Assembly: GCA_943348815.1 (NCBI GenBank)
Contig: CALQYT010000001.1
Coordinates: forward strand, 158,994 to 207,289
Source: Candidatus Nomurabacteria bacterium
GTDB taxonomy: Bacteria > Patescibacteriota > Minisyncoccia > Phycocordibacterales > SBAW01
DNA: 48,296 bases
Direction: 5' to 3'
The translations under genes were made by a program, and so were the position numbers. How positions within the stretch are numbered: position 1 is the stretch's first letter; each line of letters starts with the position of its first letter. The notes under the pieces were generated by a model. That model ran no database searches and had not been told where the DNA came from. It saw nothing but the letters and a program-made list of their open reading frames with translations. This document shows positions 13,557 to 30,525 of this stretch, piece after piece.

Positions 13557-13570
13557 TTTTTGTCACCACA

Positions 13571-13679
13571 AATAGCAAGTACCAAATCACAAGTAACAAA
13601 AAAGTATCAAAACTTCAAGTTTTAAATACTTTACATTTATTTGACATTTGATGCTTGAAACTTGATACTTTACGAAGTC
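13571..13679 (+). repeat. AT-rich word-repeat spacer, family 2 copy A
   Basis: Shares CAAGTACCAAAT, AAGTATCAAAA, CTTGAAACTTGA and CTTGATACTT, in the same order, with 24993-25085. Shares CAAATCACAAG with 23457-23496. Confidence 0.7.
13641..13669 (+). promoter_or_regulatory. sigma70 promoter TTGACA-17-GATACT for rpsJ
   Basis: Consensus -35 at 13641-13646 and -10 at 13664-13669. Only 10 nt separate the -10 from ATG 13680. Confidence 0.5.
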
Positions 13680-14051: not shown

Positions 14052-14065
14052 AGAAGATTTTAAAC

Positions 14066-14094
14066 AAAAAGCTCCTCGCAAGAGGGGCTTTTTG
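14066..14094. terminator. bidirectional intrinsic terminator after rpsJ
   Basis: AAAAAGCTCCTC-GCAA-GAGGGGCTTTTT. Confidence 0.65.
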
Positions 14095-14123
14095 TTGCAC
14101 AAATTTTAAACGCACTTCATACT
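14095..14123 (+). promoter_or_regulatory. sigma70-like promoter TTGCAC-17-CATACT
   Basis: Hexamers at 14095-14100 and 14118-14123, directly upstream of the GC-rich non-coding element. Confidence 0.4.
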
Positions 14124-14129
14124 AAAAAG

Positions 14130-14460
14130 GCGAGGGGACTCTCTCGGTCTTGCCGCACGCACTGTGCGCGCGGTGGGTTCTGCCGAGAAAAGCCTTTGTT
14201 GGTTGGCATCCACAACTGCTGGCTGGCCGGGGCGCGCAGTGCGCTCCGGCTGGTCGAAAAATTCACCCGACACCCAATGAACTTGGAGGACGTGTCGTGT
14301 ACGATGGTTTTAGTGCGGACCAAGGTCCCTTGGCCTCGCGCGCAACAGCGCGCTTTTGGGCAAATCTTGACTATTGGTTCGAGCGGTTGGGTGGGGGTGG
14401 TCACGCCCACGCTTCCCGAACTGCGCGAATGATCTATCGGGTTCATCGCAATTATTAAAA
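14130..14460 (+). ncRNA. candidate structured non-coding RNA, family unknown, strand tentative
   Basis: About 330 nt at about 60% GC (hand count). No protein-like ORF. At least six local hairpins. Bounded by a promoter and a strong terminator. Confidence 0.4.
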
Positions 14461-14484
14461 GCCTGACCTCTGTCAGGCTTTTTT
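14461..14484 (+). terminator. intrinsic terminator
   Basis: GCCTGAC-CTCT-GTCAGGC followed by T6. Confidence 0.7.
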
Positions 14485-14493
14485 GTTTAAAAT

Positions 14494-14522
14494 TTGCATA
14501 AAACCAGACACTCGGGTATAGT
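14494..14522 (+). promoter_or_regulatory. sigma70-like promoter TTGCAT-17-TATAGT for rplC operon
   Basis: Hexamers at 14494-14499 and 14517-14522, 58 nt upstream of rplC. Confidence 0.45.
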
Positions 14523-14580
14523 CCCTGGGACGCCTTAAATAGCGTTGATCCGCGTCGGCCTACGCCGACCTACAGACAAC

Positions 14581-15222
14581 ATGACGAAATTAATCCTTGG
14601 AACCAAGGGCAAGATGCTTACGGTATTTACCGACGACGGTCGGGCCTTTGCCGCAACCGTGGTTAACGCTGCTCCCAACATGGTGACGCAAATCAAAACG
14701 AAAGAAAAAGAGGGCTACGCTGCCATGCAAGTGGGTGCACTCGAGACAAAGCCGGTGCGTATTAACAAAGCGCAGCTTGGTCACACCAAAGGTAAAGCAC
14801 TGCGATTTTTCCGCGAGTTGCGTCCGCGCGCCGCGATGGTGGGTGGCGAAGTTGCCACTAATTTTCCTGAACTTGGTTCGACGATCGATGTTTCGACTTT
14901 TACCGTCGGAGACAAAGTAACCGTATCGGCAGTTTCGAAAGGCAAAGGCTTCCAGGGCGTGGTTAAGCGCCATGGCTTCCACGGTGGTCCGCGCTCGCAC
15001 GGTCAAAAGCACTCTGAGCGCTCGCCCGGCTCTATCGGCGGCTCGGGTGGTCGCGCCGGTGGTCGTGTGGCCAAAGGTATGCGCATGGCCGGCCGTATGG
15101 GCCAAGATCGTGTGACGGTGCGCAACCTTGCAGTCTTGCAAGTACTCCCCGAAACCAACGAGCTTGTGATCGCCGGCGCAATACCCGGTCGTCGCGGCAC
15201 GCTGGTAGAAATCCGCGGATAA
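14581..15222 (+). CDS. rplC: 50S ribosomal protein L3
   Basis: FQGVVKRHGFHGGPRSHG motif. Start at ATG 14581 (MTKLILGTKG) within ORF 14545-15222. Confidence 0.93.
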   Translation: MTKLILGTKGKMLTVFTDDGRAFAATVVNAAPNMVTQIKTKEKEGYAAMQVGALETKPVRINKAQLGHTKGKALRFFRELRPRAAMVGGEVATNFPELGSTIDVSTFTVGDKVTVSAVSKGKGFQGVVKRHGFHGGPRSHGQKHSERSPGSIGGSGGRAGGRVAKGMRMAGRMGQDRVTVRNLAVLQVLPETNELVIAGAIPGRRGTLVEIRG

Positions 15223-15230
15223 ATAAATCT

Positions 15231-15866
15231 ATGGAAACTAAACTTTTTAACATACAAGGCAAAGAAGTAGGCAAGCTCGAAATCCCCGAAGGTGTTTTTG
15301 GGTTGCCGTGGAATGCCGACTTGGTGCACCAGGTCGTCACCTCGATGCAGGCCAACTTGCGTGGCCCTATTGCTAACACCAAAGGTCGCGGCGAAGTGCG
15401 CGGCGGCGGCAAAAAGCCTTGGCAGCAAAAGGGCACCGGTCGCGCGCGCCACGGCTCGAGCCGCTCGCCAATCTGGAAGGGTGGCGGTGTAACGCACGGT
15501 CCGCTCAAAGAGGCTATCTACACGACGAAGATCAACCGCGGCATGGCGCAAAAAGCGTTTCTTGTTGCACTCTCGCGTAAGTACAAAGATGGTGAAATAG
15601 TGTTTGTCGACGGTGTTTCGATGGCCGAACCAAAAGCAGCTGAGGCTAAGAAGTTCCTCGCCGCCTTTGCGATACAAAAACGAAACAACGCCGCACTGGT
15701 GGCACTTCCTACCCGCGATGTTGCTACCCAAAAGAGCTTCCGCAACTTTGGCAATGTCGAGGTTGAGGAAGTGCGCAACTTAAACACACTCTCGATCCTT
15801 TCTAAAAAAACGCTCTTCATTGTTGATCCGAAAAACGCCTTCGAAATTCTGAACAAAAAAATATAA
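15231..15866 (+). CDS. rplD: 50S ribosomal protein L4
   Basis: RGEVRGGGKKPWQQKGTGRARHGS motif. Confidence 0.93.
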   Translation: METKLFNIQGKEVGKLEIPEGVFGLPWNADLVHQVVTSMQANLRGPIANTKGRGEVRGGGKKPWQQKGTGRARHGSSRSPIWKGGGVTHGPLKEAIYTTKINRGMAQKAFLVALSRKYKDGEIVFVDGVSMAEPKAAEAKKFLAAFAIQKRNNAALVALPTRDVATQKSFRNFGNVEVEEVRNLNTLSILSKKTLFIVDPKNAFEILNKKI

Positions 15867-15868
15867 TT

Positions 15869-16156
15869 ATGAACAAGCACCCAAGCACCATACTCTTTGC
15901 ACCGCGCATCACCGAAAAGGCCGCCTACCTCGGCGAGCAGGGCGCGTACGCGTTTAATGTCGCACCAAGTGCGACTAAACGCGAGGTTGCCGCCGCGATA
16001 CACGAGGTCTACAAAGTGCATCCGCGCAAAGTTACCCTGGTGCGCATTCCGCGCAAGCAAGTAAAGGTCCGCAACAGCAACCGAGTAGGCCACAGCGCGG
16101 GCGGCAAAAAAGCTTACGTGTTTCTTAAACAGGGTGACAAGATCGAAATTGCATAA
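15869..16156 (+). CDS. rplW: 50S ribosomal protein L23
   Basis: 95 aa. ITEKAAYL...YAFNVAPSATKREVAAAIHEVYKV. Position in S10 order. Confidence 0.9.
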   Translation: MNKHPSTILFAPRITEKAAYLGEQGAYAFNVAPSATKREVAAAIHEVYKVHPRKVTLVRIPRKQVKVRNSNRVGHSAGGKKAYVFLKQGDKIEIA

Positions 16157-16158
16157 GT

Positions 16159-17004
16159 ATGAAATCTTACCGACCCTACACTAAGTCCCGCCGCCACATG
16201 ACCACCGTGAGCTTTGACTCGCTGACGGTAGCCGAGCCGCACAAAGCGCTGACCGGCGGTTTTCGCCGCGGTTCGGGCCGCAACAACGCGGGCCGCATTT
16301 CGGTGCGCCACAAAGGCGGCGGTCACAAGCGCCTCTATAGGGATATCGACTTTGGCTACGGCAAACGCGTTGCCGCACGCGTCGAGACGGTTGAGTACGA
16401 TCCGAACCGCTCGGGCTTTATTGGCCTCTTGCTCTATCGCGATGGCGAGCGCCGCTACGCGCTGTTGCCTCGTTCGGTAAAAGTTGGTTCAACGATCGAA
16501 ACCTCCGAGACCGCACCGGCAACACCGGGCAATCGCATGCCGCTTAAAAACATGCCGATCGGCGCGTTTATTTACAACGTCGAACTCAAGCCGGGGCAGG
16601 GGGGCAAACTGGGCCGCGCCGCCGGTACGCACATCGAGCTTATTGCGCGCGACCAGGGCTATGCCGATCTTAAGATGCCGAGTTCGGAAATTCGCAAAGT
16701 ACTCGAAACTTGCTGGGCAACTTTGGGCGAAGTCTCCAACGATGAGCACCACCTGCGCACGATAGGCAAAGCCGGCCGCAGCCGTTGGTTGGGTATCCGC
16801 CCGACCGTCCGCGGTACGGCGATGAACCCGGTCGACCACCCACACGGCGGCGGCGAGGGTCGCCAAGGTCGTGGTTTGCGCCGCGCCAAGAGCCTCTGGG
16901 GTAAGCCAACGGGCAAGGGTCAGAAGACGCGCCGCCCGAAAAAATACAGCAATTACCTCATTGTTTCGCGCCGCAAGGTTGGCAAACGTAACAAAATAAT
17001 GTAG
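16159..17004 (+). CDS. rplB: 50S ribosomal protein L2
   Basis: [14 protein letters not shown] and [14 protein letters not shown] motifs. Confidence 0.95.
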
Positions 17005-17024
17005 TATTTTGCTTCCTAATCACT

Positions 17025-17393
17025 ATGTCACGATCACTTAAAAAAGGACCCTACGTCGACGCAAAACTCCTCAAGAAAATTGAGGGCAAAAAGCCGCAAA
17101 CCGCGGAGGTGATTAAGACGTGGGCACGCCGCTCGCAGATTGCCCCGGAGATGGTGGGCTTTAAATTTGGCGTCTACAACGGCCGCGTACACATCGAGGT
17201 CTTGGTGAGCGAAGACATGGTGGGGCACCGCTTGGGCGAGTTTAGCCCGACCAAGAAGTTCGTTCGTCACGGCGGTAAGATGCAGAAGGAGATCGAGACC
17301 AAGGCTAAAGAGGCCGAGATTGCAGCCGCACAGGCTTCCAAAGCTGCGGCCGATGTCGCCGGAGCTAAAAAGGCCGCCGCACCGGCAAAATAA
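17025..17393 (+). CDS. rpsS: 30S ribosomal protein S19 with Ala/Lys-rich C-terminal extension
   Basis: [12 protein letters not shown] and VYNGR motifs. About 30 extra C-terminal residues. Confidence 0.92.
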
Positions 17394-17396
17394 TTT

Positions 17397-17768
17397 ATGG
17401 CTATCGCAACCGCACAACTCAAAAACTACCGTCAAGCACCGCGCAAAGTGCGTTTGGTTGCCGACCTCGTGCGCGGCAAGTCGGCCGAGCGCGCACTCTC
17501 GTTGCTTGCCATGTTGCCTAAGCGCGCGAGCTTGCCGATGCAGAAACTTATCCAGTCTGCCGTTGCGAACGCCAAAGATGTTTCGGCCGCTGAACTCTAT
17601 ATTTCTAAAATAGAGGTCAACGGCGGGATTGTCTTTAAACGACACATGCCCCGCGCACGAGGAAGAGCGGCTGAGATATTGAAACGCACTTCTCATGTGT
17701 CTGTGTCCTTGGATCGAAAAAAGAAATCCGAAGCACGAAATCCGAAATCCGAAAAAAACCATGAGTAA
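17397..17768 (+). CDS. rplV: 50S ribosomal protein L22
   Basis: YRQAPRKVRLVADLVRGK motif. The C-terminal tail KKKSEARNPKSEKNHE is encoded by the repeat cassette. Confidence 0.92.
   Translation: MAIATAQLKNYRQAPRKVRLVADLVRGKSAERALSLLAMLPKRASLPMQKLIQSAVANAKDVSAAELYISKIEVNGGIVFKRHMPRARGRAAEILKRTSHVSVSLDRKKKSEARNPKSEKNHE
17723..17754 (+). repeat. family 1 cassette GAAATCCGAAGCACGAAATCCGAAATCCGAAA
   Basis: Near-identical words occur at 23042-23073, 25526-25551, 33348-33437 and 33627-33650. This copy ends 6 nt before the rpsC ATG. Confidence 0.75.
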
Positions 17769-18429
17769 AGTAGTACATCCGTTTGCACATCGTTTGGGAG
17801 TCTTGCGAGACTGGCGCCACCGCTGGTTTGCCATCGGCCCTGCCTATCTTGAAAATCTCAAGACCGGCGTTTTGCTGCGCGAATATCTACAGAAGCAGTT
17901 GCGCGGTATGTACATAGGCGACATCGAGCTTGAGCGCAACACCAAGTCTTTGCGCGTGATTGTTAAAACCTCGCGCCCCGGCCTTATCATCGGCCGCTCG
18001 GGCGAAGGCTCGCAGAAGCTCCGTGCCTCTATCGAAAGCTTTTTGCGCAAGCACAAACTGACCGTACCGGATATCAAACTCGATATCGAAGAGATCCGCA
18101 GCCCCGAGTCGAGCGCCGCTATTGTGGCCTACATGGTGGCCGAAGGTTTGGAAAAGCGTCTGCCCTTCCGCCGTGTGCTCAAACAAACGATCGAAAAGGT
18201 GATGGCAAACCGCGACGTCAAAGGCGTACGCATTGTTATCTCCGGCATGTTGGGCTCTGGTTCGATGTCACGCACCGAAGTTTTGAAGAAAGGTCGCATT
18301 CCGCTGCAGACGATCCGCGCCGATGTAGACTTTGCCAAAGAGCGCGCCAACCTCCCGCTTGGTGTCATTGGCGTCAAGGTATGGATCTACAAGGGTGACG
18401 TCTTTGCCGCTCGCGGCAAAGACAAATAA
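17761..18429 (+). CDS. rpsC: 30S ribosomal protein S3
   Basis: MSKVVHPFAHRLGV and a KH-domain region. Start at ATG 17761 within ORF 17695-18429. Overlaps rplV by 8 nt. Confidence 0.93.
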   Translation: MSKVVHPFAHRLGVLRDWRHRWFAIGPAYLENLKTGVLLREYLQKQLRGMYIGDIELERNTKSLRVIVKTSRPGLIIGRSGEGSQKLRASIESFLRKHKLTVPDIKLDIEEIRSPESSAAIVAYMVAEGLEKRLPFRRVLKQTIEKVMANRDVKGVRIVISGMLGSGSMSRTEVLKKGRIPLQTIRADVDFAKERANLPLGVIGVKVWIYKGDVFAARGKDK

Positions 18430-18455
18430 AGAAGATTGCTAAGACTTAAAAATTT

Positions 18456-18872
18456 ATGATGTTTCCTAAAAAAGTAAAATTCCGCAAGTGGCACACGATG
18501 CGCCGCAACCCAAAACCGACTAAGCTCGCGACGCGCGGCATTACGGTTGCGTTTGGCTCGCATGGGCTTAAGGCGACGACGCATGCACGCGTGCGCTCCA
18601 ACCAGATAGAGTCGGCGCGCAAAGTTATCGCCCGCGCACTCGGCAAAACCGGCAAGCAATGGATCCGCATCTTCCCCGACAAGCCGTACACGCAAAAGCC
18701 GCCCGAGGTTAAGCTCGGCAAGGGTAAGGGCGACCCGCAAGGCTACGAGGTAGAGGTGTGGCCGGGCCGCGTCATGTTTGAGGTAGACGGTGTTGCCGAC
18801 GCGCTTGCGGTCCAAACATTGATTAAAGCTGCAAAAAAGTTGCCGCTTACCGCTAAAGTGGTCACCCGCTAA
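18456..18872 (+). CDS. rplP: 50S ribosomal protein L16
   Basis: PKKVKFRKWH and GKGDPQGYEVEVWPGRVMFEV motifs. Confidence 0.94.
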   Translation: MMFPKKVKFRKWHTMRRNPKPTKLATRGITVAFGSHGLKATTHARVRSNQIESARKVIARALGKTGKQWIRIFPDKPYTQKPPEVKLGKGKGDPQGYEVEVWPGRVMFEVDGVADALAVQTLIKAAKKLPLTAKVVTR

Positions 18873-18885
18873 CATCCCCGACGGG

Positions 18886-19113
18886 ATGATGAAACATCAT
18901 ATGACTAAAAAACTTAACTTAAATAATCACTCGGTCGAAGACTTGCAAAAGCTTTCGGCCGAACGCCGCGAAGAGCTGCGGAGCTTGCGTTTTAACGTCG
19001 CTGGTAGTAAGAATCGGGATGTTAAGCGGGCGTCAAAACTGCGCAAAGAGGTTGCCCGCGCGATGACCGAGCTCAGCAAACGCAACCCCGCTAAGCCGCC
19101 CCGCACCAAATAA
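18886..19113 (+). CDS. rpmC: 50S ribosomal protein L29
   Basis: LSAERREELRSLRFNVAGSKNRDVKRASKLRKEVARAMTEL. The start could be ATG 18901. Confidence 0.88.
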   Translation: MMKHHMTKKLNLNNHSVEDLQKLSAERREELRSLRFNVAGSKNRDVKRASKLRKEVARAMTELSKRNPAKPPRTK

Positions 19114-19118
19114 TATTT

Positions 19119-19364
19119 ATGGAAACTAAACAACCACAACGCAAAACCTTCCGCGGGACCGTCATGTCCACGAAGATGCAAAACACGGCTATTGTCGCGG
19201 TCTCGCGCTATGTGAAGCACGTTAAGTATAAAAAGTTTCTCAAAAAGACCTCGCGTTTTGCCGCACACAACGAGGGCAACAAAGCCAAAGAGGGTGATGT
19301 GGTAACGATCCGCTCGTGCCGCCCGCTGTCCAAAACCAAACATTTCGAGATTGTATTCGAATAA
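19119..19364 (+). CDS. rpsQ: 30S ribosomal protein S17
   Basis: FRGTVMSTKMQNTAIVAVSRYVKHVKYKKF motif. Confidence 0.93.
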   Translation: METKQPQRKTFRGTVMSTKMQNTAIVAVSRYVKHVKYKKFLKKTSRFAAHNEGNKAKEGDVVTIRSCRPLSKTKHFEIVFE

Positions 19365-19369
19365 AATTT

Positions 19370-19750
19370 ATGATTCAAGACCGTTCACTTGTAGTAATTG
19401 CAGATAACTCCGGCGCCAAAATTGGACGCATTTTCAAGATCCCCGGATCGTCCAAAAAGCGCTATGCCGAAATCGGCCAGCTCGTTATCCTCTCGGTCCA
19501 GACCGCCGAGCCCCGCAAAGCGGTTAAGAAAAAAGACGTGCTCACGGGTGTGGTGGTGCGCCAGCGCAAACCCTTCCGCCGCAAAGACGGCTCGTACATC
19601 CGCTTTGATGAAAATGCGGTCGTAATTTTGGAAACCGGCGGCAAAGACAAAAAAGAGCCGAAGGCTGGACGCATCTTTGGTCCTATCCCGCGTGAGTTGC
19701 AAGACTTGGGCTACCAGACGATAATCTCCCGCGCACCAGAAGTTGTATAA
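19370..19750 (+). CDS. rplN: 50S ribosomal protein L14
   Basis: MIQDRSLVVIADNSGAK. Start at ATG 19370 within ORF 19316-19750. Confidence 0.94.
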   Translation: MIQDRSLVVIADNSGAKIGRIFKIPGSSKKRYAEIGQLVILSVQTAEPRKAVKKKDVLTGVVVRQRKPFRRKDGSYIRFDENAVVILETGGKDKKEPKAGRIFGPIPRELQDLGYQTIISRAPEVV

Positions 19751-19754
19751 TTTT

Positions 19755-19979
19755 ATGAACACTCTCCACGTAAAAAAAGGTGATACCGTCACGATCCGCT
19801 CCGGTGTCGACAAAGGCAAGTCGGGAAAAGTGACGCGTGTATTCCCTAAACTCCAAAAGGTATCGGTGGAGGGAGTAGGGAAGCACGTCAAACACCAAAA
19901 GCCGCGCCGCCAAGGCCAGGCCGGACAGATTGTCGAGAAGTTTCGCCCGATCCATGTCAGTAAGGTCACCAAAAAATAA
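19755..19979 (+). CDS. rplX: 50S ribosomal protein L24
   Basis: HVKKGDTVTIRSGVDKGKSGKV (KOW motif). Start at ATG 19755. Confidence 0.92.
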   Translation: MNTLHVKKGDTVTIRSGVDKGKSGKVTRVFPKLQKVSVEGVGKHVKHQKPRRQGQAGQIVEKFRPIHVSKVTKK

Positions 19980-19981
19980 CC

Positions 19982-20521
19982 ATGCCGCCGCTTATTGCTG
20001 AAAAACAAAAAATTGCTTTTAACACGCTGAAGTCTGACTTTGGTTGGAAGAACGCTATGCAAACACCCAAGATTACCAAAGTAGTGATCTCGGTTGGCGT
20101 GGGCAAAATGATTAAAGAAAAAGGCCGCCTCGAGTTTGTCGAAGGCCGCTTGGCTAAAATCGCGGGCCAAAAAGCCGCGCACCGCGGTGCTAAAAAATCG
20201 ATCGCAACCTTTAAGACGCGTATTGGCGACAAAATTGGCTACCAGGTAACGCTCCGCGGCAAGCGCATGGAAGACTTCCTCAATCGTCTCATCCACATCG
20301 CACTTCCTCGCACCAAAGACTTTAAAGGCATTTCGACCGCTGGTATCGACGAGATGGGCAACTACACGCTCGGCATGAAAGAGCATACGGTCTTCCCCGA
20401 AACGGCCGACGAAGATATCAAAGACATTTTTGGGATGGCAGTTACGGTCGTCACCACTTCCAAAGACAAAAAAACTACCGAGGCTTACCTCAGACACTTG
20501 GGTTTTCCGTTTAAGAAATAA
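19982..20521 (+). CDS. rplE: 50S ribosomal protein L5
   Basis: 179 aa. PKITKVVISVGVG...YQVTLRGKRMEDFLNRL. Confidence 0.94.
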   Translation: MPPLIAEKQKIAFNTLKSDFGWKNAMQTPKITKVVISVGVGKMIKEKGRLEFVEGRLAKIAGQKAAHRGAKKSIATFKTRIGDKIGYQVTLRGKRMEDFLNRLIHIALPRTKDFKGISTAGIDEMGNYTLGMKEHTVFPETADEDIKDIFGMAVTVVTTSKDKKTTEAYLRHLGFPFKK

Positions 20522-20538
20522 ATAAAAACAGCTGCGGG

Positions 20539-20886
20539 TTAGGCAGCTGCTGTAAATTCGAATTCGAGTTGAGCAACGTCTCTTAACTCGTACGGTTCTT
20601 CTAGCTCGGTCGCTTGCAAAAGCGGTTGTACAAGGTAGGGGAGCGTCTGCAAGCGTTTGAGTGCCTCAAGTGGGTCAAGTTCGCTTGAGATGTAACACTC
20701 GCATTCTTCTGACTCGGGATGCCCGCACTCATCATCCATGTACCACTCTACAAATACGCCGTCATTCCGTAAGAACAAATGACGACCTTGGTGGCGCTCA
20801 GGCATCAGACACTCACGGGGAGTGCGGTCAGAGCCAGTTGATAGGCTATCTAAGAAGGGGACTAGGATGCCGCAGTGGTAGGGCAT
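20539..20886 (-). CDS. hypothetical acidic Cys-containing protein
   Basis: 115-aa ORF antisense to the ribosomal cluster. No motif. The stop is embedded in a hairpin followed by a T-run. Confidence 0.5.
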   Translation of the reverse strand: MPYHCGILVPFLDSLSTGSDRTPRECLMPERHQGRHLFLRNDGVFVEWYMDDECGHPESEECECYISSELDPLEALKRLQTLPYLVQPLLQATELEEPYELRDVAQLEFEFTAAA

Positions 20887-20945
20887 GGCTCAGCTCCTCG
20901 TGCTCGCCAACTGTTATATACCACAGTTGAGGGTATAATTCGTGC

Positions 20946-21485
20946 ATGATTCGCTGGCACGAAGTTACTTGGTACTCCCGTTGGGGAGCGATACTATTAT
21001 TCCTCGTCGTGGTGCCAGTACTTTGTTTTTACATCGGAACGCAATATGAACTTGCTTCTCAAAGTGTAATAAAACCTTTGCCCACAGCATCCGTTTCAAC
21101 CGTCTCACCGAAAATTACTTGTGCTCAAGCAGCAGATGCTCAGCTTAAGACTGATGCAGGTATCCTCCCTCACCTTACGGAGTCAACGACTTCTGTACAC
21201 ATTAGTGATTACGGATTGATCCAAAATTGTTACTTTCTTAACAAAAATGTATCGAACTCAACTTTAGACCAAGCCTATGATCCCAAGGTTGATCCTCCCA
21301 CGTATGAGCAAGATACTCTCTATTTTTACCCCTTAGCTCACGGTTATATTTCTGGGGAAGGAAGATTAATAGCTAGTTATACGACAGTGTCGGGGTATCA
21401 GATAAGTACCTCAAGGACTTTTCTTAATATATCAAAGAATTTTTTTGACGAGTTGATCAAAGATATTTGGCAGAAAAACGAATAA
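20946..21485 (+). CDS. hypothetical membrane-anchored protein
   Basis: N-terminal TM helix WGAILLFLVVVPVLCFYIG, then an AT-rich extracytoplasmic domain. Confidence 0.6.
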   Translation: MIRWHEVTWYSRWGAILLFLVVVPVLCFYIGTQYELASQSVIKPLPTASVSTVSPKITCAQAADAQLKTDAGILPHLTESTTSVHISDYGLIQNCYFLNKNVSNSTLDQAYDPKVDPPTYEQDTLYFYPLAHGYISGEGRLIASYTTVSGYQISTSRTFLNISKNFFDELIKDIWQKNE

Positions 21486-21502
21486 TTTTTTAATTAAAAA
21501 CC

Positions 21503-21868
21503 CTACTTATAAAACAGCGGGGAGATGAAGAGGGTAGCGAGGAAGATTGCGGTGATGACGGCAAAGGCACCGATGGTGTGCACGCCGAGTTTAACCGCTT
21601 CAACTTTTTGGCCATCAAGATACAGCAGCACGGGTTGGTAGAAAAAGGTGTAGGCCATCACTGCTGCCGAAAGGGTGAGTAACGAAAGCATCGTAATGGG
21701 CATCAGCACATTGTCGACCGGGTCAACGAGCGGCTGTCCAAAGTACATAACCGAAGACACTACGCCAATGTAGAGTGCCGCCATGAGCGCGTTTAAAACA
21801 GGGTTTTTGGTCATACGATGCTTCATCGCCCTTGTGAGGGTGTGTTTAGTATAACTTTGGCCAATCAA
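21503..21868 (-). CDS. hypothetical small membrane protein (3 TM)
   Basis: Helices LNALMAALYIGVVSSVMYF, ITMLSLLTLSAAVMAYTFFY and IGAFAVITAIFLATLFI. Start uncertain. Confidence 0.6.
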   Translation of the reverse strand: MIGQSYTKHTLTRAMKHRMTKNPVLNALMAALYIGVVSSVMYFGQPLVDPVDNVLMPITMLSLLTLSAAVMAYTFFYQPVLLYLDGQKVEAVKLGVHTIGAFAVITAIFLATLFISPLFYK

Positions 21869-21890
21869 AACGAGTTACTTTCCAAATTAA

Positions 21891-21919
21891 AAAACCCCGC
21901 CGCGGACGATGCGGTGGGG
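21891..21919 (-). terminator. intrinsic terminator of 21920-22351
   Basis: CCCCGCCGC / GCGGTGGGG hairpin followed (minus sense) by TTTT. Confidence 0.5.
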
Positions 21920-22351
21920 TTAAGCTCGGCGCTCAATAAGTGCCTTCTGCAGGCCGGGGAAGCGCTTGATGAGATCGCGCACGCCTTGGGCAAGAGTGTG
22001 ACGTCTCTTCTCAACTCGCTCGATAAGCTTCGCTGCCCTTTCGACCCTTGCCGGTCGCGCAGGCGCCACTGGGTTATCAAGCCAGGGGGTGAGTTGCTCG
22101 AGTTCCGCCGCATCTTTGGCCAAGAACCACGCAAGGGTCCGCATCACCGAAACAGTGCCTCGGCAGTTTGCGCGTCCGTGGCGCCACTGTCGGCACTCAA
22201 CACTCAGTCGGTCGAAGAATGAAGCCGAGGGAACCTCGTACATTTTGTGGTGCGGCAATGGGATCTCGATCGTGAGTCCCGGCTCGTAGTTTTGGGCTTG
22301 TGACGCCGTTATCAGCAGCATCAGTAGGCAAACCGTGATCAATGCCTTCAT
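21920..22351 (-). CDS. hypothetical secreted protein
   Basis: Signal peptide MKALITVCLLMLLITASQAQ. Strong SD (GAGAGGAGGTGG) upstream. Confidence 0.65.
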   Translation of the reverse strand: MKALITVCLLMLLITASQAQNYEPGLTIEIPLPHHKMYEVPSASFFDRLSVECRQWRHGRANCRGTVSVMRTLAWFLAKDAAELEQLTPWLDNPVAPARPARVERAAKLIERVEKRRHTLAQGVRDLIKRFPGLQKALIERRA

Positions 22352-22392
22352 AGGCCACCTCCTCTCTCGACCTTATCACTAAAATAAAAATT

Positions 22393-22424
22393 AAAAAACC
22401 CCGCCTCAAGATTGAGAGGAGGGG
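22393..22424 (-). terminator. intrinsic terminator of 22406-22648
   Basis: CCCCTCCTC / GAGGCGGGG hairpin followed (minus sense) by T6. Confidence 0.5.
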
Positions 22425-22648
22425 AGATTCAGTACGAGCTCGCGGGCGGCTTGCAAAGCGACGAGACCGGGGATGCCCTTGCGGACAAACGGTTCGGCGA
22501 GCGCCGCAATGTGCTCGTCTTCGTCGGTGGCGGGGCACTTGGCGTGGAGTTCTTCAGCCAATTTCAGTGCCTCGTAAAAATCTTTATCGGTGGCGAAGTT
22601 GAGGCTTTCTTTCCTCAAATTCCCCAACTTTTCCGCAAAGGTACGCAT
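22406..22648 (-). CDS. hypothetical small helical protein
   Basis: 80-aa ORF with its own terminator. No motif. Confidence 0.5.
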   Translation of the reverse strand: MRTFAEKLGNLRKESLNFATDKDFYEALKLAEELHAKCPATDEDEHIAALAEPFVRKGIPGLVALQAARELVLNLPSSQS

Positions 22649-22720
22649 GACCTGTTGTTTCCTCTGGTTGGGGGCCTCTAACCAACAAATACCCTAATCC
22701 CGAAAATGAGTCAACCATAT

Positions 22721-22749
22721 TTGCAGTGGGGAGAGCACCGTGCTATATT
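22721..22749 (+). promoter_or_regulatory. sigma70-like promoter TTGCAG-17-TATATT for rpsN block
   Basis: Hexamers at 22721-22726 and 22744-22749, restarting the spc genes after the island. Confidence 0.45.
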
Positions 22750-22857
22750 CCTCGAAGCCCTCAGGGCTCCTTTTTTCTGTTAGGTGCCGCTTAGTCGAAA
22801 GGCGAGGCATACCGGCAGAATCGTAACTCCCAAGGCATGGGGAGTAACCATTTACAA

Positions 22858-23043
22858 ATGGCAAAAAAATCCACAGTCGCGCGTTCGAACCGACCCCCGA
22901 AATTCAAAAGTAGGGTAGTTCGCCGTTGTTTCCGCTGCGGCCGCAAGCGCGCCTTTATGCGTGACTTCGGACTCTGCCGCGCCTGCTTCCGCGAGGCGGC
23001 TAACGAAGGCCTTATCCCAGGAGTCCGAAAGTCCTCCTGGTAA
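22858..23043 (+). CDS. rpsN: 30S ribosomal protein S14, zinc-binding type Z
   Basis: 61 aa. [20 protein letters not shown] (CxxC...CxxC). Start at ATG 22858. Confidence 0.93.
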
Positions 23044-23073
23044 ATACGAAGCACGAAATTCGAAATCCGAAAC
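23042..23073 (+). repeat. family 1 cassette AAATACGAAGCACGAAATTCGAAATCCGAAAC
   Basis: Same word set as 17723-17754. Ends 2 nt before the rpsH ATG. Confidence 0.75.
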
Positions 23074-23075
23074 TT

Positions 23076-23456
23076 ATGAACACCGACCCAATAGCAGATC
23101 TTCTAGTCAGACTTCAAAACGCTTCGCGCGTTGGGCACACCTCTATCGAGGTACCCTTCTCGGCGATGAAGATGGCCATCGCACGCGTACTCGCAACCGA
23201 AGGCTACGTGGGCGATGCCGACAAGAAAAACAATTCCATCACGATTGCACTTAAATACCAAAACGGCACGCCAGCCATCAGCGGTGTTAAGCGCGTTTCC
23301 AAACAGTCGCGCCGCATCTATATGGGTGTCCGTGATGTCCGCCCTATTAAACGCGGCCGCGGTTTGCTCGTCCTCTCGACTCCCAAAGGCATCATGTCGG
23401 GCAAAACGGCCCGCACCGAACGCGTTGGCGGAGAAGCCCTATTTGAAATCTGGTAG
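23076..23456 (+). CDS. rpsH: 30S ribosomal protein S8
   Basis: MNTDPIADLLVRLQNA motif. Confidence 0.94.
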   Translation: MNTDPIADLLVRLQNASRVGHTSIEVPFSAMKMAIARVLATEGYVGDADKKNNSITIALKYQNGTPAISGVKRVSKQSRRIYMGVRDVRPIKRGRGLLVLSTPKGIMSGKTARTERVGGEALFEIW

Positions 23457-23496
23457 ATTTCAAAAAGTTTCAAATCACAAGCATCAAATCACAAAC
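23457..23496 (+). repeat. family 2 word repeat (TCAAATCACAAG x2)
   Basis: TTTCAAATCACAAGCATCAAATCACAAAC lies directly upstream of the rplF ATG. Confidence 0.6.
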
Positions 23497-24045
23497 ATGA
23501 GTAGACTAGCTAAACGACCAATTCCGCTCCCACCCAAAACCGAGGTTACCGTCTCGGGCCTGCCCGGCCAGGGTGGCTCGGTTGCCGTCAAAGGCCCCAA
23601 AGGCACGCTGCAGCGCCCGGTGCACCGCGCCATTTCGCTCGAGGTAGGCGCCGACGGCGTGCAGGTATCGTCCAAAGGTGATGCGCTCGAAACTAAAGCC
23701 TTGCTCGGCACCTACGCGAGCCATGTGCGCAACATGCTCACCGGCGTTACGCAGGGCTTTAGCAAAAAGCTTTTGATCGAGGGCGTCGGCTTTAAGTGGG
23801 ATGTGCAGGGCAAGACGCTCAACCTGGCGCTTGGATTTTCGCACCCGGTCAAAGTACCGATCCCCGAAGGTCTTACGCTGAGCATCGACAAAGGAGTTCT
23901 CACCATCGTGGGTATCGACCGCGAGTCGGTAGGACAGTTTGCCGCCAACATCCGCGCGCTCAAGAAGCCCGAGCCCTACAAAGGCAAAGGCATCCGCTAC
24001 GAGGGCGAGGTGATCCGCCGCAAGCAAGGTAAGAAGGCCGCATAA
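23497..24045 (+). CDS. rplF: 50S ribosomal protein L6
   Basis: MSRLAKRPIPLP. Start at ATG 23497 within the longer ORF 23215-24045. Confidence 0.93.
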   Translation: MSRLAKRPIPLPPKTEVTVSGLPGQGGSVAVKGPKGTLQRPVHRAISLEVGADGVQVSSKGDALETKALLGTYASHVRNMLTGVTQGFSKKLLIEGVGFKWDVQGKTLNLALGFSHPVKVPIPEGLTLSIDKGVLTIVGIDRESVGQFAANIRALKKPEPYKGKGIRYEGEVIRRKQGKKAA

Positions 24046-24050
24046 CCACT

Positions 24051-24377
24051 ATGATTAACCGCGAACGTCGTCACAACCGCATACGCTCTAAAGTTACTGG
24101 CACCGCTGCGCGCCCGCGTTTGTGCGTATTTAAATCAAACCGTTATTTGCACGCACAGATTATTGACGACGCGCAAGGCAAAACGCTCGTTGCCGGCACG
24201 ACCAAAGGGATGAAGGACAAAAAAACCGCCGCGGCAGCAAAGTTGGGCGAAGATTTGGCAAAACGCGCCAAAGGAGCGGGCATAACCAAGGTGGTGTTCG
24301 ATCGCGGAGGTTTCCGCTATACTGGCCGAGTTGCGATATTGGCCGATGCGGCACGCAAAGGAGGTCTCGAATTTTAA
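24051..24377 (+). CDS. rplR: 50S ribosomal protein L18
   Basis: RHNRIRSKVTGTAARPRLCVFKSNRYLHAQIID motif. Confidence 0.94.
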   Translation: MINRERRHNRIRSKVTGTAARPRLCVFKSNRYLHAQIIDDAQGKTLVAGTTKGMKDKKTAAAAKLGEDLAKRAKGAGITKVVFDRGGFRYTGRVAILADAARKGGLEF

Positions 24378-24380
24378 TAT

Positions 24381-24992
24381 ATGGCTGACGAACAAGAAAT
24401 AATTGCTACTCCCGAAGATGTTGCTGCCCCCGAGGCGGTAGTCGCTGATATTGCTGCTGTTGCCCCCGCAGAAGGCGACCGTCGCGGTGGCCGCCAAGGC
24501 CGCGGCGGTGGTCGTGGTGAGCGTCGTGGGGGCCGCCAAGGTACCCGCCCGCCGCGCGTGCGCTCGGAGTTTGACCAAAAAATGATCACGATCCGCCGCG
24601 TAGCGCGCGTCGTTGCCGGTGGTCGCCGCTTCTCTTTCTCTGTCGCAATCATCATCGGCAACAAAAAAGGCAAAGTGGGTGTGGGCTTGGGCAAAGCAGG
24701 GGACACGACGCTCGCTATCGACAAGGCCGTACGCGATGCCAAAAAGCACATGATCACGGTGCCGCTGAGCAAAGACAACTCCATCCCGCACGATGTGTCG
24801 GCTAAGTACTGTGCCTCGCACGTACAAATGCAGCCGGTGCGCGGTCGCGGTTTGGTTGCCGGTTCGTCGGTACGCCCGGTGCTCGAGTTGGCCGGCATCA
24901 GCAACACCATAGCCAAACTTCACTCGGGTTCTAAAAACGGTCTCAACAATGCCCGCGCCGCGATAGAAGCTTTAAAGAAGCTTAAAGCTTAA
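24381..24992 (+). CDS. rpsE: 30S ribosomal protein S5 with acidic plus RGG-rich N-terminal extension
   Basis: RVARVVAGGRRFSFSVAIIIGNKKGKVGVGLGKA motif. About 60 extra N-terminal residues, including GDRRGGRQGRGGGRGERRGGRQG. Confidence 0.93.
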   Translation: MADEQEIIATPEDVAAPEAVVADIAAVAPAEGDRRGGRQGRGGGRGERRGGRQGTRPPRVRSEFDQKMITIRRVARVVAGGRRFSFSVAIIIGNKKGKVGVGLGKAGDTTLAIDKAVRDAKKHMITVPLSKDNSIPHDVSAKYCASHVQMQPVRGRGLVAGSSVRPVLELAGISNTIAKLHSGSKNGLNNARAAIEALKKLKA

Positions 24993-25085
24993 GTATCAAA
25001 TTACAAGTACCAAATAACAAACAAGTATCAAAATTTAAAGTATCAAACTTGAAACTTGACATCTAATACTTGATACTTACACTTT
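24993..25085 (+). repeat. AT-rich word-repeat spacer, family 2 copy B
   Basis: See 13571-13679. The internal inverted words AAGTATCAA / TTGATACTT could form a hairpin. Confidence 0.7.
25049..25077 (+). promoter_or_regulatory. sigma70 promoter TTGAAA-17-GATACT for rplO
   Basis: Hexamers at 25049-25054 and 25072-25077. Only 8 nt separate the -10 from ATG 25086. Confidence 0.45.
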
Positions 25086-25523
25086 ATGCAACTCAACGAA
25101 CTAAAACGCAAAACCCCGTACAAAGGCATCAAGCGCATTGGCCGTGGCCGCGCCTCCGGCAAAGGCAAGACCGCCGGCAAAGGTACCAAGGGTCAGAAGG
25201 CGCGCGCCGGTCACAAGATCCGCCCCGATGTCCGCGAAAAGCTCAAGAAGCTCCCTAAATTGCGCGGTTACAACTTTGCTACCATCCAGCGCAAGCCGGT
25301 AGTGATCAACCTTTCGGTACTCGAAACCGTTTTTAGTAACGGCGATACGATCAACCCAACGGTTTTGCGCGAGCGTCATGTGGTGCGCGGCCCCAAAAGC
25401 AGAAAATTGGTAGTCAAAATCCTCGGCGACGGCGAACTCACTAAAAAACTCGTCATCCAAGGCTGCGCCGTATCGGGCAGCGCACGACAAAAGATAGAAA
25501 AAGTGGGCGGCACAATAAGTTAA
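25086..25523 (+). CDS. rplO: 50S ribosomal protein L15
   Basis: GRGRASGKGKTAGKGTKGQKAR motif. Confidence 0.93.
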   Translation: MQLNELKRKTPYKGIKRIGRGRASGKGKTAGKGTKGQKARAGHKIRPDVREKLKKLPKLRGYNFATIQRKPVVINLSVLETVFSNGDTINPTVLRERHVVRGPKSRKLVVKILGDGELTKKLVIQGCAVSGSARQKIEKVGGTIS

Positions 25524-25525
25524 AC

Positions 25526-25551
25526 TCGAAATCCGAAGCACGAAATTCGAA
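25526..25551 (+). repeat. family 1 cassette CTCGAAATCCGAAGCACGAAATTCGAA
   Basis: Abuts the secY ATG at 25552. Confidence 0.75.
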
Positions 25552-26823
25552 ATGAATTCTTTTTTCCAAAAACTCACGCTCCTCATTGCCGATCCGGCGT
25601 TGCGCAACCGCTTGCTGTTTGTCATTGGCGCGCTCGCCGTCTTTCGTATACTCGCGGCTATCCCGATCCCCGGCATCAACGCTGCGCAGCTCGAACTCTT
25701 TTTTAATAACAACCAATTTTTTGGGTTGCTCAACCTCTTTTCTGGCGGCGGGCTCTCTAACCTCTCGCTCGTGATGCTCGGCGTTGGCCCCTACATCACC
25801 GCATCCATCGTCATGCAGCTGCTTACCCTCATGATCCCGCAGCTCAAGGCCCTGTATCAAGAAGAGGGCGAGATTGGCCGCCAAAAATTTAGCATGTACA
25901 GCCGTTGGCTCACGCTCCCTATTGCAGTAGTGCAGGGTATCTCCTTCCTCATCATCCTCGAGCGCCAGGGCGTCTTGCCATCGCTCGGTTACTTTGGCTT
26001 TGCGGCTAACGTCCTTACCATTGTTGCCGGCTCGATGTTGCTCATGTGGATCGGCGAACTTATTTCGGAGTATGGCCTCGGCAACGGTGTCTCGGTTCTC
26101 ATCTTTGCCGGTATTGTTGCACGCTTGCCACAAAACTTTTCGCAACTCATCTTTAGCTTCGACCCGGCACAAATTCCTTCATACCTCGCATTTTTGGTTG
26201 CGGCGCTCGCGGTCATTGCGGCGGTCGTGTTTATCACCGAGGCCGAGCGGCCGGTGCCCGTGACCTATGCCAAACGTGTCCGCGGGATGAAATTTTTTGG
26301 CGGCTCATCCACCTACTTGCCCCTGCGTCTTAACCAAGCGGGCGTGATCCCGATCATCTTTGCGCTCTCGTTCCTGCTTATCCCGCAAATGTTTGCGAGC
26401 TTCTTCCAAACGAGCTCGGTTGCGGTGTTGGCCAATACCTCGGCGTGGATACTGAGTGTGCTGCAAAACCTGCCGGTCTACGGCGTGTGCTACTTCCTCT
26501 TGGTGTTTCTCTTTACCTACTTCTACACCGCGGTTACGTTTGATCCGCACCAGATCGCTGAAAACTTGCAAAAGAATGGCGCCTTTATCCCCGGTGTACG
26601 CCCTGGCAACTCGACCCAAGAATATTTGGGTTCGGTCATCACGCGTATTACGTTTGTCGGCGCACTCTTCTTGGGTATCATCGCCGTGTTGCCAATCATC
26701 ATGCAATCCTTCACCGGCATCCAGTCTCTGGCGCTTGGCGGTACGGCACTCTTGATAGTTGTCTCGGTTATTTTGGACCTCGCTCGTCGCATCGACGCGC
26801 AAATCTCTATTCGGGAGTATTAA
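25552..26823 (+). CDS. secY: preprotein translocase subunit SecY
   Basis: 423 aa, 10 TM. LGVGPYITASIVMQLL and GELISEYGLGNGVSVLIFAGI motifs. Confidence 0.95.
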   Translation: MNSFFQKLTLLIADPALRNRLLFVIGALAVFRILAAIPIPGINAAQLELFFNNNQFFGLLNLFSGGGLSNLSLVMLGVGPYITASIVMQLLTLMIPQLKALYQEEGEIGRQKFSMYSRWLTLPIAVVQGISFLIILERQGVLPSLGYFGFAANVLTIVAGSMLLMWIGELISEYGLGNGVSVLIFAGIVARLPQNFSQLIFSFDPAQIPSYLAFLVAALAVIAAVVFITEAERPVPVTYAKRVRGMKFFGGSSTYLPLRLNQAGVIPIIFALSFLLIPQMFASFFQTSSVAVLANTSAWILSVLQNLPVYGVCYFLLVFLFTYFYTAVTFDPHQIAENLQKNGAFIPGVRPGNSTQEYLGSVITRITFVGALFLGIIAVLPIIMQSFTGIQSLALGGTALLIVVSVILDLARRIDAQISIREY

Positions 26824-26881
26824 TTGCTCTCATAAGTTAGAAGTGCTATTTTGACCTTGGAATTCCGGAATCGTTCCGGAT

Positions 26882-27727
26882 ATGGCCAGTGGTTGGGGCC
26901 TGAAGTCACATATCACCACCTTGAGCGTTGCTCTCGTACAACGCGGGGTCTTTGACATGAGGTTCAGGACAGGCGAGTCGCAAGACATCGGCAATGGTTC
27001 AGCGATTGCATTTTGGGGTCGGCGCGAGCTGAGCTCTGACGTGGCAATGCCGCAAGGCCCTCTCTTCGTGCGGCAGGGTGTGGAACTTCTTATGCAAGCA
27101 GAAATTGCCTGCACAAAAGTACCGCACCATAGTACCCGAGCTGCACTGATGCACGGACACAAGCAGGCGCTCGTCCGCAGTTTGGAAGAGCGTGCGGAAA
27201 GAGAATGGGGGATGCCCTACGATCTCAGGGTTGAAGAAAGTTACCCGTTGCTGGGGGCGGACTGGATCCGGTTGAGGTTCCGCTACTGCGTATACAAACC
27301 GCCCTCAGACCCAGCTTCGTTCCTTAAGCAATACGCCGGTCATCTCAAGCGGTGTTGGACCTTGATCGAGTGGATCGAGTTTCGGTGGGATGGGAAAGCA
27401 GAGGAGTTGGGTTTGGAATGCCCAATCCTTCCGCATGACATCACGTTCAAACAAAAAAATATCGAAATACTGCCACCGTTCCATAAAACATGTCGCCACC
27501 TCTTGGCCGTAGCCCAAAAGACGGACATGAGCTTCTGGCCGGCACTTGGTACGGCACGTTTGGGAGTAGGCCTTTCCGACGAAATGCGCCCCGAACTTGA
27601 TAGTCTCGTGCGGAGAGGATATCTGTTGCCGTGGGACCAACAATACAACTTAACTCAGCGGTTTGCGGTTGAGATGTGGAAGTGGTCTATCGGCGAACCA
27701 AATCAGCTCATTCCCGCCTCGGCTTAA
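26882..27727 (+). CDS. hypothetical protein
   Basis: 281-aa ORF between secY and adk. No motif. Start uncertain. Confidence 0.5.
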   Translation: MASGWGLKSHITTLSVALVQRGVFDMRFRTGESQDIGNGSAIAFWGRRELSSDVAMPQGPLFVRQGVELLMQAEIACTKVPHHSTRAALMHGHKQALVRSLEERAEREWGMPYDLRVEESYPLLGADWIRLRFRYCVYKPPSDPASFLKQYAGHLKRCWTLIEWIEFRWDGKAEELGLECPILPHDITFKQKNIEILPPFHKTCRHLLAVAQKTDMSFWPALGTARLGVGLSDEMRPELDSLVRRGYLLPWDQQYNLTQRFAVEMWKWSIGEPNQLIPASA

Positions 27728-27739
27728 ATGCTGGGGTTT

Positions 27740-28303
27740 TTAATTTGTGGCGAGCCACTCGTTGTATTTTTGCAAAATAAGCTGGATCACTTGCTCAAGA
27801 TTGTGTTCATTGGTGTCGATTACTAAATCAAACGCGCTTTCGGTAGGGTAGTCGATGTTGTAAAGCGTTTTGTAGCGCATCTTTTCGCTCTCGATTCGGC
27901 GCACCAAATGCGTATAAATTTCCTCTTCGGTGTTTCCGTCTTGGTTAAGCCGACCTTGCTGCTGCATTTGCATAAACGTTCGCTTGGCAGCGATGCGCGG
28001 ATCGAGTTTGAGTAACACCTTAAACGACTCAGGCAACCAATAAAACGCTATGCGCGAGTCCATAACCAGGTCAGTTTGCTCGCCCGTTTCGCGAATTTTA
28101 GCGTCTATAGCCGCATCAATAGAATTATCTTTTTCTGCAAGATGCTGCATCTGGTCGATAGTGAGCCCCCGCTCAAGCCCGAGTTGACGCATAAAATCGC
28201 CCGAGGAAAACCTCTTATAGCTAAGTGCTTTGGCAACCCCATTGGCCGTGCTGGACTTGCCTGTACCAGGGAGCCCGGAGATCGTGATTATCCTCTTCTT
28301 CAT
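27740..28303 (-). CDS. P-loop nucleoside monophosphate kinase, cytidylate-kinase-like
   Basis: ITISGLPGTGKSS Walker A, plus the SSGDFMRQ and VMDSR pattern of the archaeal-type CMP kinase family. Family unverified. Confidence 0.7.
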   Translation of the reverse strand: MKKRIITISGLPGTGKSSTANGVAKALSYKRFSSGDFMRQLGLERGLTIDQMQHLAEKDNSIDAAIDAKIRETGEQTDLVMDSRIAFYWLPESFKVLLKLDPRIAAKRTFMQMQQQGRLNQDGNTEEEIYTHLVRRIESEKMRYKTLYNIDYPTESAFDLVIDTNEHNLEQVIQLILQKYNEWLATN

Positions 28304-28330
28304 TTGGGTTAACTACGCTACTATACTCCA

Positions 28331-29727: not shown

Positions 29728-29769
29728 CCGCATTGCAAAAAAGGCGAGGGTGTTGTAGAGTTGCTCGCA

Positions 29770-30351: not shown

Positions 30352-30388
30352 AGTTTTCCACCAGTAAAATTTTTGTTTTGGGACGGTT

Positions 30389-30397: not shown

Positions 30398-30401
30398 AGG
30401 G

Positions 30402-30519: not shown

Positions 30520-30525
30520 AGACAG

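Follow-up and report, generated by a model that had tools for sequence, protein, structure and literature searches.

The short cassette that stands directly ahead of the rpsC, rpsH and secY start codons in this Candidatus Nomurabacteria genome is likely to be one arm of a heptamer-periodic palindromic mobile repeat that is tolerated at gene junctions, and probably does not serve as a dedicated initiation signal for translation. The full element consists of a sense arm made up of roughly four 7-nt units (CGAAATY and CGAAGCA), then a centre and an inverted arm, with the centre holding either the gene for a 123-aa four-helix-bundle protein or merely AT-rich remnants. We picture the family as a selfish, horizontally spread insertion in a 0.82-Mb genome, which would have entered the stop-to-start spacers of operons, C-terminal protein tails, variable protein loops and the loop of a group I intron in the 23S rRNA gene. 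Solo arms would most likely be the remains of hairpin elements after partial loss. An earlier note on this DNA had offered a translation-initiation or coupling element, a processing site and a small mobile repeat targeting junctions as candidate readings. The last of these is supported by presence and absence at orthologous junctions, a patchy distribution within the genus, copies in an intron and in frame inside genes, and the occurrence of the arm across phyla.

Heptamer-unit arms in the window and the genome

The window, by which we mean the whole stretch of DNA that was analysed, spans 48,296 nucleotides. The cassettes reported before rpsC, rpsH and secY are present, match each other far above shuffles and expectation, and form period-7 arrays. 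Allowing at most one mismatch, GAAGCACGAAA matches the window 10 times where 1.49 matches are expected, and none of 100 shuffles reaches 10; for CGAAATYCGAAA the figures are 10 observed and 1.05 expected. Tandem Repeats Finder called period-7 arrays at 17723-17754, 23054-23072, 33349-33381 and 33408-33430. The cassette is a tandem run of 7-nt CGAAATY units with the variant CGAAGCA, and the number of units differs from copy to copy. The copies and the genes around them, with gene products identified by Pfam, are as follows.

17397-17768: L22
17722..17754, plus strand: solo sense arm in the L22 tail before rpsC, units GAAATC-CGAAGCA-CGAAATC-CGAAATC-CGAAA, supplying the last rplV codons
17761-18429: S3
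22837-23043: S14
23042..23073, plus strand: solo sense arm between the rpsN (S14) stop and the rpsH (S8) start, occupying the 32-nt spacer
23076-23456: S8
25086-25523: L15
25524..25551, plus strand: solo sense arm between the rplO (L15) stop and the secY start, occupying the 28-nt spacer, its last unit continuing into the ATG
25552-26823: SecY
32990-33340, minus strand: L20
33349..33437, minus strand: rpmI/rplT hairpin element without an ORF, both arms present
33390-33626, minus strand: L35
33623-34162, minus strand: IF3

The arm in the L22 tail ends 6 nt before the rpsC ATG (17761), and the L22 stop codon (17766-17768) overlaps rpsC. On the mRNA strand, the rpmI/rplT hairpin runs from a sense arm (33406-33437), which encodes the L35 tail, through an AT-rich loop that contains the L35 stop codon (33390-33392) to an antisense arm (33349-33380), which is followed by 8 nt and the rplT ATG (33340). 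What had been counted as two copies upstream of rplT are indeed sequences of this kind, but they are the inverted arms of one hairpin element (33349-33437). The C-terminal tails of L22 (...KKKSEARNPKSEKNHE), L35 (...KSKARSSKHETNIKN) and IF3 (...LEKARKQ) all read as previously claimed, but that of IF3 is native rather than cassette-encoded. The supposed copy at infC/rpmI (33627-33650, minus strand) is the native 3' end of infC (..VLEKARKQ, then the stop codon), with the same IF3 end, ..LE(R/K)AKK.., in 5/5 relatives examined, and the infC/rpmI junction is an ordinary ATGA overlap. The related CGCACGAAAG before ATG 7108 falls away too: the match goes no further than an 8-mer, GCACGAAA turns up 61 times across the genome, for the most part within genes, and the ORF at 7108-7332 found no Pfam support.

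Read directly from the sequence, the sense arm has no start or stop codon in any frame. The 4/4 junction solos of this genome are in mRNA-sense orientation, end 0-6 nt before the ATG, and place no AUG, GUG or UUG ahead of the real start. Solo arms, including the rpsC, rpsH and secY copies, are unstructured as RNA (0 to -3.7 kcal/mol, z +0.6 to +1.6). Hairpins of the same family, which we call family A, fold with z-scores of -3.2 to -8.9 into imperfect stems of 25-30 bp; the rpmI/rplT hairpin reaches -19.6 kcal/mol (z -4.25). An Rfam search of the whole window at gathering thresholds returned only a tmRNA and two tRNAs and no match at the cassettes. A promoter and terminator scan of 15000-34500 placed 0/20 promoter-like and 0/45 terminator-like sites on family-A copies.

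The host genome (818,771 bp in 17 contigs, 96.7% complete; G000 among the genomes of the genus) contains 13 family-A loci: one with an ORF, five hairpins, four junction solos and three copies in frame inside genes. In the hairpins, a sense arm, an AT-rich centre of ~30-45 nt and an inverted arm are followed after 0-10 nt by the next ATG, and the five, all without an ORF, measure about 90-115 bp each. They lie at rpmI/rplT in the window, at rplJ/rplL, between a metallo-hydrolase gene and an ORF, between secG and the gene for a solute-binding protein, and within the 23S rRNA gene. The junction solos, all sense arms, are those of the L22 tail/rpsC, S14/S8, L15/secY and murJ/lepA, and the in-frame copies are in uvrA, uvrC and an amidase gene. 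The copies share the order of variant units, CGAAATC-CGAAGCA-CGAAATY-CGAAA, as well as flanking words. With terminal inverted repeats, small size, multiple copies and no coding capacity, the ORF-less hairpins have the makings of MITEs. Target-site duplications were not found; with AT-rich flanks (TAA...TTA/ATG) and relatives this diverged, none could be defined.

The 23S rRNA gene (contig C4:6812-10981, equivalent to L090:1013-5182) is 4170 nt long, compared with a model of 2925 positions, and contains an Rfam group I intron match (L090:4677-4884) plus further insertions. The ORF-less hairpin copy lies directly 5' of the intron match, a position that would place it in a P1-like loop of the intron.

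Heptamer arrays are not confined to family A. We counted 36 lag-7 arrays in the genome, 29 of them not inside a CDS, compared with 4-12 arrays for periods of 5, 8, 10, 11 and 13. Three further elements of this type lie in the window.

13570..13670, plus strand: hairpin-type element in the tuf-rpsJ spacer, AAGTA/CAAAT unit families, 9 nt before the probable rpsJ ATG (13680)
23470..23496, plus strand: solo arm of a third family, TCAAATCACAAGCA-type with period 7/14, adjoining the rplF ATG (23497)
24993..25085, plus strand: family-B hairpin at rpsE/rplO, units AAGTATC/CAAGTAT, RNA fold z -2.08

The rpsJ product, S10, was identified by Pfam, and the hairpin ahead of rpsJ belongs, like that ahead of rplO, to family B. 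Within the 19.5 kb scanned, the sigma-70-like matches that score best, TTGAAA-17-GATACT and TTGACA-16-TACACT, fall in the family-B hairpin before rplO (25049-25083), the former ending 8 nt ahead of the ATG; an outward promoter may come with this arm family.

Elsewhere in the window, rplE and rpsN of the spc operon are set apart by about 2.3 kb of lower-GC DNA (47%; 20522-22836). The ORFs in it (20539-20739, minus; 20946-21485, plus; 21503-21868, minus; 21818-22222, plus; 22406-22648, minus) gave no Pfam match, and some are on the opposite strand. A 529-nt gap between rpsJ and rplC (14052-14580) includes a 102-aa ORF (14150-14458) without a Pfam match. The RNA genes are ordinary.

36909-37318, minus strand: tmRNA, adjoining smpB (37409-37852, minus strand)
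42078-42149, plus strand: tRNA gene
47949-48035, plus strand: tRNA gene

Presence and absence among relatives and in other phyla

The relatives compared are only 66-77% identical in DNA to the present genome. The L22/S3 junction was TAA, 1-5 nt and ATG in 27/27 other relatives in which it was located (30 loci were fetched, of which one was the present genome itself and two were without S3). The other window junctions were followed in five relatives (G058, G016, G004, G003 and G068). At S14/S8, where G016 was not resolved, the remaining four have TAA, 3-10 nt and ATG with no arm; L15/secY is a stop codon, 3-10 nt and ATG, also armless, in 5/5; and L35/L20 has AT-rich spacers of 10-25 nt without arms in 5/5. 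An insertion in a loop of uvrA is missing from 4/5 relatives; in G058 that loop holds a different insertion, of 11 aa. Copies of the family have therefore come and gone since the lineages diverged, with host genes unchanged, an outcome that the earlier note had itself named as one that would refute its reading and that speaks against the arm as a translation signal.

The distribution within the genus is patchy. A three-unit pattern gave 19 matches in the present genome, 9 in G058, 2 in G068 and 1 in G010, the last in unrelated sequence, and none in 57/61 genus genomes, so that 3 of about 60 genomes (G000, G058 and G068) carry the family. The copy in the L22 tail, the permease/IVP/permease element described below and the rplJ/rplL insertion are common to G000 and G058, although at rplJ/rplL G058 has only an antisense (U-rich) arm, ahead of rplL. 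G058 has in-frame copies of its own in two genes, putatively leuS-like and holB-like. The native L35 tail of G058 (the rpmI 3' end) includes an 11-nt word identical to the cassette (AATCCGAAGCA) that is not a cassette; it could be there by chance, or it could represent microhomology that guided the insertion in G000.

The junction at C2:745 is empty in three relatives and filled by a different arm family in G068. At this junction, which holds a family-A hairpin in G000, G068 carries a family-B solo arm (contig C6, about 64085-64110). Two arm families have apparently struck one and the same stop-to-start junction, each on its own.

At the level of strains, contigs from three lake-water runs over 17000-26000 showed no indels or substitutions at the cassettes, with only repeat-sharing contigs recruited. 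Two metagenome scans for empty sites at the L15/secY and S14/S8 junctions found none, and no near-identical strain with an empty site.

The arms are more conserved than their surroundings. Between G000 and G058, the L22-tail arm is identical at 34/37 positions, compared with 215/314 in the body of the L22 gene and 256/340 in that of S3, and with 42/103 (L22) and 62/112 (S3) at third codon positions; the arms of the IVP element are identical at 42/45 and 36/37. Together with the 20-mer shared across phyla (below), conservation above neutral sites points to sequence-specific constraint or to continual homogenisation. We would assign the constraint to the element, for instance through recognition by its own protein, but host use of the solo arms could also contribute, and a host function could lie behind the pattern.

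At one locus, two arms enclose a 123-aa ORF (contig C1:111163-111534) between two Liv-type (BPD_transp_2) permease genes. The ORF belongs to PF05635, 23S_rRNA_IVP (E 3.3e-16), and to TIGR02436, four helix bundle protein (E 1.6e-22), and its nearest solved chain is 2rld_A (E 1.5e-13). As in ORF-carrying 23S intervening sequences (IVSs), a PF05635/TIGR02436 gene thus lies between inverted repeats, with an ortholog in G058; the copy with the ORF is located outside the 23S rRNA helices. The sense arm lies ~11 nt before the IVP start codon in both G000 and G058. In sequence, the centres of the hairpins without an ORF are similar to the stretches on either side of the IVP ORF, and we therefore read these hairpins as deletion derivatives.

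The full element encodes this four-helix-bundle protein only, and no transposase-bearing parent was found. No transposase, integrase or reverse transcriptase was found for the family, and RVT_1 had no match in the 96.7%-complete genome. A retro-element origin of the DGR-like kind was considered and rejected on this missing RVT_1 match.

The association of IVP genes with heptamer arms extends beyond this locus. Both IVP genes of the genome bear heptamer-unit inverted arms, of different families, those of the second gene belonging to family B. IVP genes occur in 12/61 genus genomes, and the flanks of 13/18 IVP loci in the genus carry inverted arrays of 7-8-nt units, the other five showing only matches of 7-10 nt. 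Units of the TCAAATCACAAGCA type flank IVP genes in G003 and G059, and fill the rpsE/rplO junction of G016. IVP proteins that are 76-91% identical share related arms, whereas distant proteins have different units, a correspondence that linkage alone could explain.

The arm also reaches far beyond the genus. At least 123 stretches of species-representative genomes, drawn from many phyla, contain the exact 20-mer of the secY copy; judged from record titles, the matches listed include Planctomycetota, Desulfobacterales/Deltaproteobacteria, Saccharibacteria, other Patescibacteria, Omnitrophota, Nitrospiraceae and Chloroflexi. Among 84 matches of 80 loci that were fetched, 42 are accompanied by an inverted arm no more than 400 nt away (median 117 nt) and one by an IVP gene that shares 65% identity with that of G000; the other 41 show neither by a strict pattern. 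The arm lies next to an upstream ORF stop in 17/82 cases in other phyla, compared with 262/1640 shifted controls, which is no enrichment. This indicates that the exact stop-to-start placement in the present genome is an effect of its compactness. With ~90% of the genome coding and only a few bases at each junction, solo arms come to adjoin start codons.

Translation starts and the competing readings

The cassette genes lack a Shine-Dalgarno (SD) sequence, as the earlier note had said; the observation is correct, but it is not peculiar to these genes and holds genome-wide. The 16S rRNA ends ...GGAACAAUUCAAAUG... without CCUCC (G000 contig C4, L001:2915-2970), and CCUCC is missing from the 16S 3' ends of all 17 relatives read, from genus and order. 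Our own crude gene caller (806 genes) overlooked a few short genes, among them S14 and L35, and the start statistics drawn from it are approximate: 12.2% of 800 starts have an SD core ahead of them, compared with 10.5% of random sites, TANNNT stands exactly at -12..-7 in 155/800 starts compared with 1.3%, a pyrimidine is found at -1, and positions -12 to -4 are A/T-rich and G-poor. The combination of TANNNT at -12..-7 and a pyrimidine at -1 suggests widespread leaderless mRNAs. Genes with a divergent neighbour 13-100 nt away have TANNNT within -15..-5 in 66-81% of cases, and 248/589 same-strand gene pairs overlap or are at most 12 nt apart. Since the 16S rRNAs of relatives and the genome-wide starts agree, the missing SD is a property of the clade and not of the cassette genes. 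Translation without SD pairing across the clade would proceed from leaderless mRNAs and by termination-reinitiation at tight junctions. Solo arms would persist at such junctions because the sense arm is unstructured, free of starts and stops and encodes a hydrophilic peptide, which would leave translation of the downstream cistron unblocked. Sense orientation and the lack of start codons fit selection for a reinitiation spacer and mere tolerance equally.

The earlier note's idea of an SD-independent initiation or coupling element can be put in its strongest form as an A-rich, structure-free and start-codon-free landing or scanning pad, original or exapted, over which ribosomes without an anti-SD would reach the next AUG after the upstream stop or with the help of an S1-like protein. 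The setting suits it: the host has neither anti-SD nor SD signal and encodes an S1-like protein of 384 aa, the solo arms are unstructured and all four are sense-oriented at 0-6 nt from the ATG, the same arm precedes the IVP start in the presumed master element of two genomes, and the L22-tail copy is conserved above neutral expectation. We nevertheless consider this reading unlikely. Relatives that are equally without anti-SD keep TAA, a few nucleotides and ATG at the same genes with no arm and unchanged gene structure, and the spacing to the ATG varies over 0-6 nt. The arm before rplL in the closest relative, G058, is in the opposite, U-rich orientation, and in the hairpin copies it is the antisense arm rather than the sense arm that precedes rplT, rplL and other genes. 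Copies inside ORFs and in the intron occupy places that call for no initiation, the arm shows no pairing with the 16S tail, and it is found in identical form in phyla whose translation does use SD.

RNA processing, in which the hairpins would be RNase III substrates as in rRNA IVSs and cleavage would separate cistrons and leave a very short leader, would draw on the 25-30-bp imperfect stems with z-scores down to -8.9, on the 0-10 nt between hairpin and next ATG, on an encoded RNase III (260 bits, above the cut-off), on the frequency of leaderless initiation in this genome and on an anatomy like that of ORF-carrying 23S IVSs. It is plausible for the hairpin copies only, as three solo arms are unable to form a stem. 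The intron around the 23S copy is removed in any case, and relatives manage without the hairpins; as an account of the cassette, processing is in our judgement distinctly unlikely.

Independent origin at each junction through replication slippage of a 7-nt microsatellite would agree with the varying unit number and with the over-representation of heptameric simple sequence repeats (SSRs) in bacterial intergenic DNA, as reported in the part of PMC4692102 available to us, but it is very improbable given that copies share one order of variant units and the same flanking words, that a matching inverted arm and a homologous centre come along, and that the same 20-mer recurs across phyla.

A replacement for SD pairing with the altered 16S tail, which after helix 45 is TGGAAYAATTCAAATGAA-like, conserved in the genus and partly in the order, can be set aside almost entirely: the complementarity check proposed with the cassette gave a best duplex of -3.6 kcal/mol and 3 bp, within about one standard deviation of shuffle means of -2.7 to -3.0, the 800 upstream regions pair with the tail no better than shuffles (mean -3.21 versus -3.57), and the position matrix shows no such motif. 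On these near-shuffle energies, the 16S pairing candidate was rejected.

The tempting reading of the cassette as a new ribosome-binding signal is thus set aside as probably wrong, and the palindromic mobile repeat remains our preferred account. A wider version of it, which we offer tentatively and hold to be possible but some way short of probable, would make the arms cis sites recognised by the element's IVP protein. Arm and protein would then form an undescribed selfish cassette of broad host range that spreads across phyla without transposase, integrase or reverse transcriptase, seeds the excess of intergenic heptamers and inserts into transcribed junctions, with solo sense arms kept in Parcubacteria lacking the anti-SD as reinitiation spacers free of start codons and structure.

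The family ties together two loose ends, the purpose of the 23S rRNA IVS/four helix bundle proteins and the excess of 7-base tandem repeats between genes. That the arm is identical in many phyla and better conserved than synonymous sites points to a partner with sequence specificity. Here is also a concrete case of an organism without anti-SD, and largely leaderless in its mRNAs, that tolerates insertions of 30-100 nt in core ribosomal-protein operons; such insertions amount to a natural experiment on the translation of internal cistrons without SD pairing.

Comparison with known systems

Literature searches with the cassette words returned only unrelated text, and among the partly accessible work naming PF05635, TIGR02436 or the IVS protein we found none that links IVP genes to flanking heptamer arrays. 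The closest relatives in anatomy are the ORF-carrying 23S IVSs of Leptospira and Coxiella, in which a gene of the PF05635 family lies between inverted repeats that form a long stem. The present element likewise encloses a PF05635 gene by inverted repeats in a transcribed unit, and one ORF-less copy is within a 23S gene. It differs in that most copies are in mRNA operon junctions or ORFs and not in rRNA, that the 23S copy is in a group I intron rather than in helix 25 or 45, and that the arms are tandem 7-nt units with ORF-less and solo-arm forms dominating.

Rickettsia palindromic elements (RPEs) are short palindromes of a reduced genome that occur in frame in proteins and in RNA genes and are tolerated in surface loops. 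The in-frame and RNA-gene copies in the present reduced genome are alike in this respect; there is no sequence relation, and RPEs have neither heptamer units nor an IVP gene. The Correia/NEMIS MITEs of Neisseria are inverted-repeat elements at junctions that can be co-transcribed, form hairpins and can bring promoter-like sequences. Presence and absence at junctions are similar here, and family B also brings promoter-like sequences, whereas the present family has no transposase-bearing parent and no target-site duplication that we could find, and its larger form carries a four-helix-bundle gene.

On the side of translation, Bacteroidota-type initiation is independent of SD and uses A-rich, unstructured leaders. 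In the present organism, by comparison, the A/T-rich and G-poor upstream region is a trait of the whole genome and clade and not of the cassette, and the dominant signal is the -10-like TANNNT, which points to leaderless mRNAs. Within Parcubacteria, the anti-SD motif is missing from a subgroup that overlaps the group lacking uL1, according to the portion of Tsurumaki et al. (2022, PMC9297842) available to us. The present host likewise lacks that motif, and a search of its 96.7%-complete genome yielded no uL1.

Heptameric intergenic SSRs have been described for Xanthomonas (GGGAATC) and Nostoc (GGGGA(C/T)T) by Rehm et al. (2015, PMC4692102), who also cite tandem heptanucleotides of Calothrix. 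In the part of that paper available to us, these repeats are tandem 7-nt units, mostly intergenic, often near an ORF and sometimes in inverted pairs, with a function that is not known. That the arms go together with an IVP gene and form part of a defined palindromic element is a feature of the present family that is absent from that part of PMC4692102. Within the same limits, tandem 7-nt units and enrichment in non-coding DNA are shared by both, while the present units are A-rich rather than G-rich, so that quadruplex formation is not expected of them.
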